In this document: in pieces, positions 23,541 to 24,719 of the stretch
Position numbering within the stretch: the first letter of the stretch is position 1
Layout of the letters: the number at the start of each line of letters is the position of its first letter
Sequence record: NC_100371.1
Reading direction: 5' to 3' (one strand)
DNA: 64,000 nt
Origin: a phage
Made by a program: the position numbers and the translations under genes
Notes under the pieces: generated by a model
Database searches by the model: none
What the model saw: only the letters and a program-made list of their open reading frames with translations
Told to the model about the DNA's origin: nothing

Positions 23541-23741
23541 ATGGGCAGATGTTCTAAAGGTGGCGATCCTGTAGTCAGATACGGTGACTGGCTAGAGGTA
23601 TATGATCTTGGAGGTAAGCTAGTGTATGCCTCCAGGATCACCCAAGACATGTGCTCTGATATGTTTAACAGATACCTTGCATTTAAGGCCAACATAAACC
23701 CAGACGAAATTTCCAAAATTAAAACAAGGAGAGCTAAATAA
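23541..23741 (+). CDS. hypothetical protein
   Basis: 66 aa. Confidence 0.4.
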   Translation: MGRCSKGGDPVVRYGDWLEVYDLGGKLVYASRITQDMCSDMFNRYLAFKANINPDEISKIKTRRAK

Positions 23742-24034
23742 TGCTAAAACTGTGCACTGCAAAGATTATTGCCGACAGCATTTCCGAGAAAGGTAAGCGT
23801 ATCACCACTTTTGAGCTAGAGTATCCTCGAATTATTCACTCAGAGCTTATGACACATCGAGTGTTCAGCCGAAACGCCATGTCTTCTCGTGCAGTTCCTG
23901 TCGGTAAGATGCTACAGCAGATCGTGGAGAATCCGGCAATGCCAGTTCGCTTCGGTGTAAATAAGCGAGGGATGGAAGATGGAACACGATCAAAAGATCC
24001 GTGTAGAGTATACCGACATGGAGTTAACTCCTGA
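23741..24034 (+). CDS. ThyX-like (flavin-dependent thymidylate synthase family) segment, frame A
   Basis: TTFELEYPRIIHSELMTHRVFSRNAMSSRA resembles the ThyX RHR-x7-S-x-R region. Confidence 0.4.
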   Translation: MLKLCTAKIIADSISEKGKRITTFELEYPRIIHSELMTHRVFSRNAMSSRAVPVGKMLQQIVENPAMPVRFGVNKRGMEDGTRSKDPCRVYRHGVNS

Positions 24035-24719
24035 AGAGTTTTGGAAAGAAGCTGCAAAAAACGCCGCGTGGCATGCAGAGAAGTTCGCCCTTGCTGGTTA
24101 CCATAAGCAAGTATGTAATCGCTTAGTGGAGCCGTTTCAGCGCATGAAAACAGTTGTAACAAGCACCGAGTGGAATAATTTTTTCCATCTGCGTTGCTGG
24201 CACGATGCTGATCCTACGATTCAGATGCTGGCTAATTGTATGTGGGATGCTCTTATGAATAGCGCTCCTGAAACCCTTAAACCAGGCCAATGGCACACCC
24301 CATATGTAGAGCACGTTTATTTGGACGGTGAGTTTAACTATGCCGTGCGTGACACAGAAGGGAAGCTATGCATTCTCGATACTGGAGAAGCTCTATCTAT
24401 TAGTGCGAGCTGCTGTGCACAAGTATCTTATCGCAATATTGACAGCACGTTTGAAAAAGCAGATAGTGTGGCTAAAAAATTGATTGGTGGGGATCGTATT
24501 CATGCAAGCCCTTACGAGCACCAGGCGACACCTATGGATCACGATAATGCAATGGAACGTTTAAACTACTACCTGTCTTCATGTGAAATCACACAAGATA
24601 GTTGTGTTTGGCAGGAAGGTGTAACCCATCAAGACCGTGATGGTAAATTCTGGTCTGCCAACTTTTGTGGGTGGGTTCAGCACAGACAGTTGCTTAATAA
24701 CCACTTCATGAAAGGGTAA
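23979..24719 (+). CDS. ThyX-like segment, frame B (overlaps frame A by 56 nt)
   Basis: Helical region ...NFFHLRCWHDADPTIQ... and HASPYEHQ resemble ThyX elements; may continue frame A through a frameshift or be a separate gene. Confidence 0.35.
   Translation: MEHDQKIRVEYTDMELTPEEFWKEAAKNAAWHAEKFALAGYHKQVCNRLVEPFQRMKTVVTSTEWNNFFHLRCWHDADPTIQMLANCMWDALMNSAPETLKPGQWHTPYVEHVYLDGEFNYAVRDTEGKLCILDTGEALSISASCCAQVSYRNIDSTFEKADSVAKKLIGGDRIHASPYEHQATPMDHDNAMERLNYYLSSCEITQDSCVWQEGVTHQDRDGKFWSANFCGWVQHRQLLNNHFMKG

Follow-up and report, generated by a model that had tools for sequence, protein, structure and literature searches.

Two overlapping open reading frames at one locus of a phage genome, ORF A and ORF B, each resemble part of a ThyX-type thymidylate synthase, and the question is whether they represent one interrupted gene, two working pieces or a rearranged relative of the enzyme. 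The locus lies in the window, which is the whole 64,000-nucleotide stretch of record NC_100371.1 analyzed here. An earlier note on this DNA had listed a programmed or erroneous frameshift, a split or decaying gene, and a rearranged ThyX as possible explanations.

Judged by its sequence, the window belongs to an rV5-like Escherichia phage (Vequintavirus) most closely related to Escherichia phage vB_EcoM-ECP32 (hereafter ECP32). The region is 99.6% identical to ECP32, which is also the best match over 24 kb (99.3%), and some 120 phage records match the region with 90% identity or more. The thyX neighborhood is a nucleotide-metabolism block: the upstream neighbor matches Pfam NT5C (deoxynucleotidase family), the downstream neighbor encodes the large subunit of class I ribonucleotide reductase, and NrdB, glutaredoxin, NrdD and NrdG lie beyond it according to the ECP32 annotation. 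In ECP32, S127 BCL3 and JES2013, the locus holds one CDS of 984 nt and 327 aa, annotated as thymidylate synthase, thyX or FAD-dependent thymidylate synthase. The related phage records, about 108-120 in all, likewise have this 984-nt gene in one piece. The window gene, 979 nt long, shares its locus, neighbors, start and stop with these Vequintavirus genes (ECP32 QDB73728.1, JES2013 YP_008530346.1), and it matches ECP32 at 978 of its 979 bases, with one mismatch besides a 5-nt gap. It differs from them in the loss of five nucleotides in codons 81-82, with one 97-aa and one 246-aa ORF in place of the 327-aa ORF. The gene itself is thus already known as the ordinary thyX of rV5-like phages, and the interruption is a real sequence feature with an ordinary meaning.

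It should be noted that about 19-24 records of the MG0656xx series (e.g., MG065654, MG065666), named "Campylobacter phage" with Campylobacter jejuni as the host, are 94-95% identical across the region; these host labels look doubtful, or else the phages look like contaminants of those preparations. The ECP32 annotation also gives two adjacent CDSs each for "RNA ligase 1" (10210-11471) and "PhoH-like protein" (32629-33827), with window counterparts at about 10140-11420 and 32576-33775. Each pair could be another split or frameshifted gene of this phage group, or else an annotation artefact.

The missing bases are GGTGG (equivalently GTGGG or TGGGG) of codons Gly81-Gly82. In the alignment, the window reads GGGATGGAAGAT, a gap of five positions and then GGAACACGAT, where ECP32, S127 BCL3 and JES2013 all read GGGATGGAAGATGGTGGGGAACACGAT, the flanks being otherwise identical; the intact junction is GATGGTGGGGAAC and the deleted form GATGGAAC. 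Because five bases are lost, the downstream part shifts to the +1 frame, as observed. The two frames, their 56-nt overlap (23979-24034) and their +1 relation (23979 - 23741 = 238 = 3 x 79 + 1) had been described accurately in the earlier note, as the ORF list confirms. Its option of a single gene likewise holds, the relatives carrying one 327-aa ORF and the window a private 5-nt deletion. The features of the locus are collected in the Table.

Table. Features of the thyX-like locus in window coordinates, and segments of the phage family (family numbering) paired with Thermotoga maritima ThyX
Feature	Position	Strand	Description	Basis
Whole thyX-like gene	23741..24719	+	Interrupted by a frameshift	Aligned to the single CDS of ECP32, S127 BCL3 and JES2013
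Ribosome-binding site	23726..23731	+	AAGGAG, 9 nt 5' of the ORF A ATG	Read from sequence
ORF A	23741..24034	+	ATG start, 97 aa; native codons 1-81 (to nt 23983), 16 out-of-frame codons, TGA at 24032-24034	ORF list
ThyX signature	23852..23890	+	THRVFSRNAMSSR; canonical RHRxxSxxxxSxR, but Thr in place of the first Arg	Aligned to T. maritima ThyX residues 74-102
Shine-Dalgarno-like sequence	23967..23971	+	GAGGG, 7-8 nt 5' of the ORF B ATG (23979)	Read from sequence
Deletion junction	23978..23985	+	GAT/GGAAC; gap between 23980 and 23981	Alignment, BLAST indel list
ORF B	23979..24719	+	ATG start, 246 aa; Met plus native residues 83-327	ORF list
Relocated module	24381..24524	+	Native residues 216-263 (two helices and HASPYEH)	Family profile against T. 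maritima ThyX residues 32-72
Family 215-257			..SasccAqvSYr...HaSpfeHq, paired with T. maritima residues 32-72 (..SAVRAARVSF...HETPFEH)	
Family 26-54			Paired with T. maritima residues 74-102 (RHR..S..S.R motif)	
Family 130-175			Paired with T. maritima residues 166-211	

The TAA of the upstream gene overlaps the ATG of ORF A in the string TAATG. After native residue 81, the frame of ORF A reads GTRSKDPCRVYRHGVNS and then stops. Frame B is open from 23961, a TAA at 23958-60 preceding it, and the deletion has moved a pre-existing ATG (within GATGG) into this downstream frame. Together, the two ORFs hold all native residues except two glycines. Internal initiation at ORF B behind the GAGGG is possible, if this element acts as its appearance suggests.

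The deletion is confined to this record among all those compared. Of 50,697 phage records searched with a 100-nt query across the deletion, 108 matched. Their identity never exceeded 95.2%, the value expected from 100 identical bases plus a 5-nt gap. Among the matches listed (60 of 108), the record span was always five bases longer than the query span, being 105 nt where the full query aligned and 97-104 nt in the eight rows with 92-99 aligned query bases. The deletion is shared by 0 of the 108 matching records. Neither the 97-aa nor the 246-aa product was present in a collection of 153 billion gene positions, and an exact-pattern scan of complete E. coli genomes gave no match to the deleted junction. 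The same pattern had no match in IMG/VR, JGI metagenomes and GTDB genomes; the intact-junction control likewise had none, which makes this particular search uninformative. In tblastn searches, the sampled records with at least 90% protein identity each gave a single full-length piece, and the window gene, with its first-frame stop at 24032, does not form one uninterrupted frame.

A metagenomic relative (L005; ENA ERZ16268165 scaffold_13172, 68-983) has a split thyX of 199 aa and 83 aa, with a 68-nt gap at the exact point where its identity to ECP32 rises from 91.5% to 100%. The 199-aa truncated relative (P0004) was rejected as an independent natural disruption: its ENA scaffold, with the identity jump at the gap, is probably a chimeric assembly of two strains.

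Apart from the break, the surrounding sequence follows ECP32 closely. When the window was compared by BLAST with 50 kb of ECP32 and all indels were listed, the 12.5 kb between 15.3 and 27.8 kb proved to differ by 9 substitutions and only this indel (~99.9% identity). Over the ~50 kb, the other indels lie between annotated ECP32 genes, lie in unannotated sequence, or form length-neutral intragenic groups, the exception being one 1-base difference in a doubtful 42-codon ORF; no other uncompensated indel occurs in any well-supported window gene. One cluster of small deletions relative to ECP32 (window 48714-48726, 24 nt in total, with no annotated ECP32 gene there) could be a short variable repeat or just a divergent site with poor alignment. 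A chimeric assembly or a recombination junction at the break is ruled out by the ~99.9% identity to ECP32 on both sides, with no change of identity across it. The gene shows 54 base differences from JES2013 and only 7 residue differences, a pattern that points to purifying selection in the lineage and to a very recent break. The decaying gene proposed in the earlier note does not agree with these data, because apart from the deletion a single base differs from ECP32; by this comparison, the break is either very recent or an error, and a decaying pseudogene is not supported.

The gene belongs to the ThyX family (flavin-dependent thymidylate synthases), albeit to a divergent branch of it. Taken alone, the fragments score 15.2 and 22.0 bits against Pfam Thy1 (the latter, from ORF B, at profile positions 120-191), and they fall under the gathering score of 24.8 because the gene is cut. 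ORF A also matches TIGR02170 with 21.3 bits (profile positions 60-96). The matches of ORF A (E = 3.4e-26) and ORF B (E = 9.7e-79) to PHROG 85 "thymidylate synthase" are strong, and the similarity to ThyX is therefore far beyond chance, which bears out the ThyX-like character first ascribed to both ORFs. An intact relative passes Pfam PF02511 Thy1 (37.1 bits against 24.8), although only with residues 23-178, equivalent to profile positions 60-190, and matches PHROG 85 with E = 1e-112; it misses the equivalog cutoff of NCBIfam TIGR02170 (39.7 against 87.9 bits). By these profile scores, the phage subfamily is a divergent ThyX and, by the NCBI criterion, no equivalog. The ThyX fold is recognized, and it was the family profile alone that reached ThyX among PDB sequences, a search with the single protein giving nothing. 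The annotation of the phage family as a dTMP synthase is a prediction from homology only, and literature searches found no biochemical data for the phage ThyX subfamily.

What the deletion means for the phage depends on which of several explanations is preferred. We consider it probable, at roughly 0.55, that this known phage thyX carries a private, genuine and recent loss-of-function deletion of 5 nt. Slippage in a short G-rich repeat is the most likely cause of the loss of the five bases (GGTGG). Ribosomes starting at 23741 would translate 81 native codons, including the catalytic THR..S..SxR, then 16 wrong codons, and would terminate at 24032; the other 245 native codons, with the helical core and the flavin-site HxSPxEH, would require a fresh start at ATG 23979. 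Because the active-site elements would be split over two pieces, the enzyme is most likely inactive, and if it is, the phage would rely on host ThyA and thymidine salvage. We assume, by analogy with other phage thymidylate synthases, that thyX would be dispensable in rV5-like phages. A less probable explanation, unlikely yet deserving of weight, is that the phage has an intact gene and that the five bases dropped out during sequencing, assembly or consensus calling, or when the record was handled later. The uniqueness of the deletion among 108 close records, the near identity of the rest of the gene to ECP32 without further decay, and the G-rich context (GGTGGGG), a type of context that some platforms miscall, are all consistent with such an artefact. 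It is opposed by the ~50 kb in which well-supported genes are otherwise free of uncompensated indels, where an error-prone assembly should give several, and by the size of the gap, since a 5-nt gap is atypical of homopolymer-length errors. Loss of five bases outside a homopolymer is an atypical sequencing error.

The two explanations that would preserve activity are far less plausible. In one of them, ORF A and ORF B, the latter with its own ATG and GAGGG, would assemble non-covalently into an active ThyX, so that the deletion would have created a natural two-chain rearranged enzyme, with THR..S..SxR on chain A and the helical core plus the relocated HxSPxEH on chain B. The position of ATG 23979, in frame with every downstream native codon and 7-8 nt behind GAGGG, agrees with this idea, as do the completeness of the combined fragments, from which only Gly-Gly is missing, and the location of the cut just past the invariant G77-M78, where the family consensus turns variable. 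However, the arrangement occurs in no relative and hence was never selected, ORF A bears a foreign tail of 16 residues, and the break interrupts a beta-strand that the structure model predicts with confidence (residues 80-83, pLDDT about 89-94). Fragment complementation is seldom efficient without selection, and we regard a working two-piece enzyme as improbable. More improbable still, to the point of being negligible, is programmed +1 recoding, whether by ribosomal frameshifting or by quadruplet decoding, that would fuse both frames into one protein. Such recoding could draw on the +1 relation, on a zone of 72 nt (23961-24032) where shifting gives a near-native protein, on weakly slippery codons in that zone (GGG-A, AAA-G), and on a neighboring phage tRNA-like gene for which ARAGORN calls a 4-base anticodon. 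Yet the frameshift is found in 0 of 108 relatives, and a recoding signal could therefore not have been selected. Codon-by-codon reading of 23951-24034 revealed neither a prfB-like CUU-UGA-C nor a slippery codon before a rare or stop codon, the context of the frame A stop being AAC-TCC-TGA. The likeness to prfB-type programmed +1 frameshifting is thus limited to the +1 relation of overlapping frames; unlike prfB, the window has no conserved shift site, no motif similar to CUU-UGA-C and no conservation of the frameshift in relatives. The programmed frameshift suggested earlier does not stand, given its absence from the 108 related records and the absence of a known +1 signal from the 72-nt zone.

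The tRNA-like gene just mentioned lies at window 5436-5534 on the minus strand (97-99 nt). ARAGORN assigns it an 8-nt loop with the 4-base anticodon AUCC, and the Rfam tRNA model (37.5 bits) a 7-nt loop, UUUUUAA, with anticodon UUU. According to Rfam, its variable region has an insert of ~26 nt that can form a hairpin, i.e., a long variable arm, and such a class II-like arm with a Lys-type anticodon is unusual. As a frameshift suppressor this gene was rejected: Rfam fits an ordinary 7-nt loop, frame A of the overlap lacks the quadruplet GGAU, and ECP32 has the same stretch (97% identity) yet an intact thyX. Rfam also detects an extra tRNA at 5841-5925 on the minus strand (39 bits; loop CUGUAAA, anticodon GUA, Tyr-like, long variable arm), which is missing from the ARAGORN output; the tRNA cluster probably has seven members rather than six.

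Apart from the private lesion, the gene exemplifies a signature and an architecture that are characteristic of its family. ORF A includes MTHRVFSRNAMSSR, and its segment HRVFSRNAMSSR aligns, in the family-profile search, to the RHRxxSxxxxSxR motif of T. maritima ThyX, in keeping with the RHR-type block that the initial reading had placed in frame A. The spacing of the motif is that of RHRxxSxxxxSxR, with the His, both Ser and the last Arg kept and the first Arg replaced by a nearly invariant Thr. Among 88 homologues, H39 and R50 are invariant, and T38, S43, N45, S48 and S49 are at least 90% conserved. Two family members, P0126 (638 aa) and P0157 (646 aa), have an intein with an HNH endonuclease inside the ThyX signature (…MTHR/C…HN/CFSRN…; for P0126, Pfam Intein_splicing 59.7 bits and HNH 32.4 bits), and the corresponding site in the window is 23858-23863 (THR/VF). 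Inteins typically occupy essential active-site motifs, and their presence inside the signature supports a functional motif. About a dozen other matches of 550-680 aa show two matched stretches and may be intein-bearing as well.

A profile built from 88 diverse homologues and searched against PDB sequences matches T. maritima ThyX as three out-of-order pieces (Table). The HASPYEHQ of ORF B (nt 24501-24524) aligns to the HETPFEH block of T. maritima ThyX, and the relocated module to which it belongs, with helices at 216-232 and 239-251 in the structure model, is the counterpart of the N-terminal alpha1-alpha2-HxSPxEH part of canonical ThyX. The re-permutation in silico leads to the same result. 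When residues 186-263 were placed before residue 20, the Thy1 score rose from 37.2 to 50.0 bits, with the coverage changing from profile positions 60-190 to a colinear 15-191, and the TIGR02170 score rose from 39.7 to 52.5 bits, still below its cutoff of 87.9. Reversed, shuffled and tail segments in the same position brought no gain (Thy1 36.3-36.6 bits), and the C-terminal 147 residues alone gave no Thy1 match. The match did not reach profile positions 1-14 even when the native N-terminal strand was added in front of the re-permuted construct. By these alignments, the architecture is that of a permuted ThyX, arising either as a strict circular permutation or as a transposed segment. The profile alignment and the re-permutation confirm the observation, made in the earlier note, that HxSPxEH lies at the unusual end. 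Its suggestion of a rearranged ThyX is right as regards the motif order, which is real, and wrong in tying that order to the frameshift, to which it is unrelated, being a trait of a large phage family.

Compared with canonical ThyX (PF02511; T. maritima TM0449, PDB 1O26; M. tuberculosis 2AF6; PBCV-1 2CFA), in which the HxSPxEH module precedes the core, the phage family has the module after the core. The family also differs in the substitution of the first Arg of RHR by Thr, in an Ala instead of the Tyr after SxR, and in ~100 extra residues, which in the structure model form a beta-rich insert (179-214) and a tail (264-327). The family is large, comprising 5041 clusters (50% identity) at E <= 1e-3, 2004 of them at E <= 1e-30. 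A total of 1020 phage records match it, among them rV5-like phages, ICP1, Pakpunavirus, Kuravirus and phiCbK-like phages, and also Pseudomonas, Klebsiella and Caulobacter phages. In the searchable library, which is incomplete, nothing relevant was found on a permuted ThyX layout or on the ThyX of rV5, and the permuted layout and the accompanying Arg-to-Thr change may so far have escaped description and characterization.

The frameshift itself is of minor importance, being either a private lesion or an error in a gene annotated as a thymidylate synthase in more than 100 close relatives. In practice, it hints that an rV5-like phage may be able to do without thyX where the host is thyA-positive. 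The permuted ThyX layout shared by the whole family is the sole part of wider interest, the role as a dTMP synthase being predicted from homology. The common "thymidylate synthase" of many lytic phages of Gram-negative bacteria is thus a non-colinear ThyX with an altered signature and without a solved structure.
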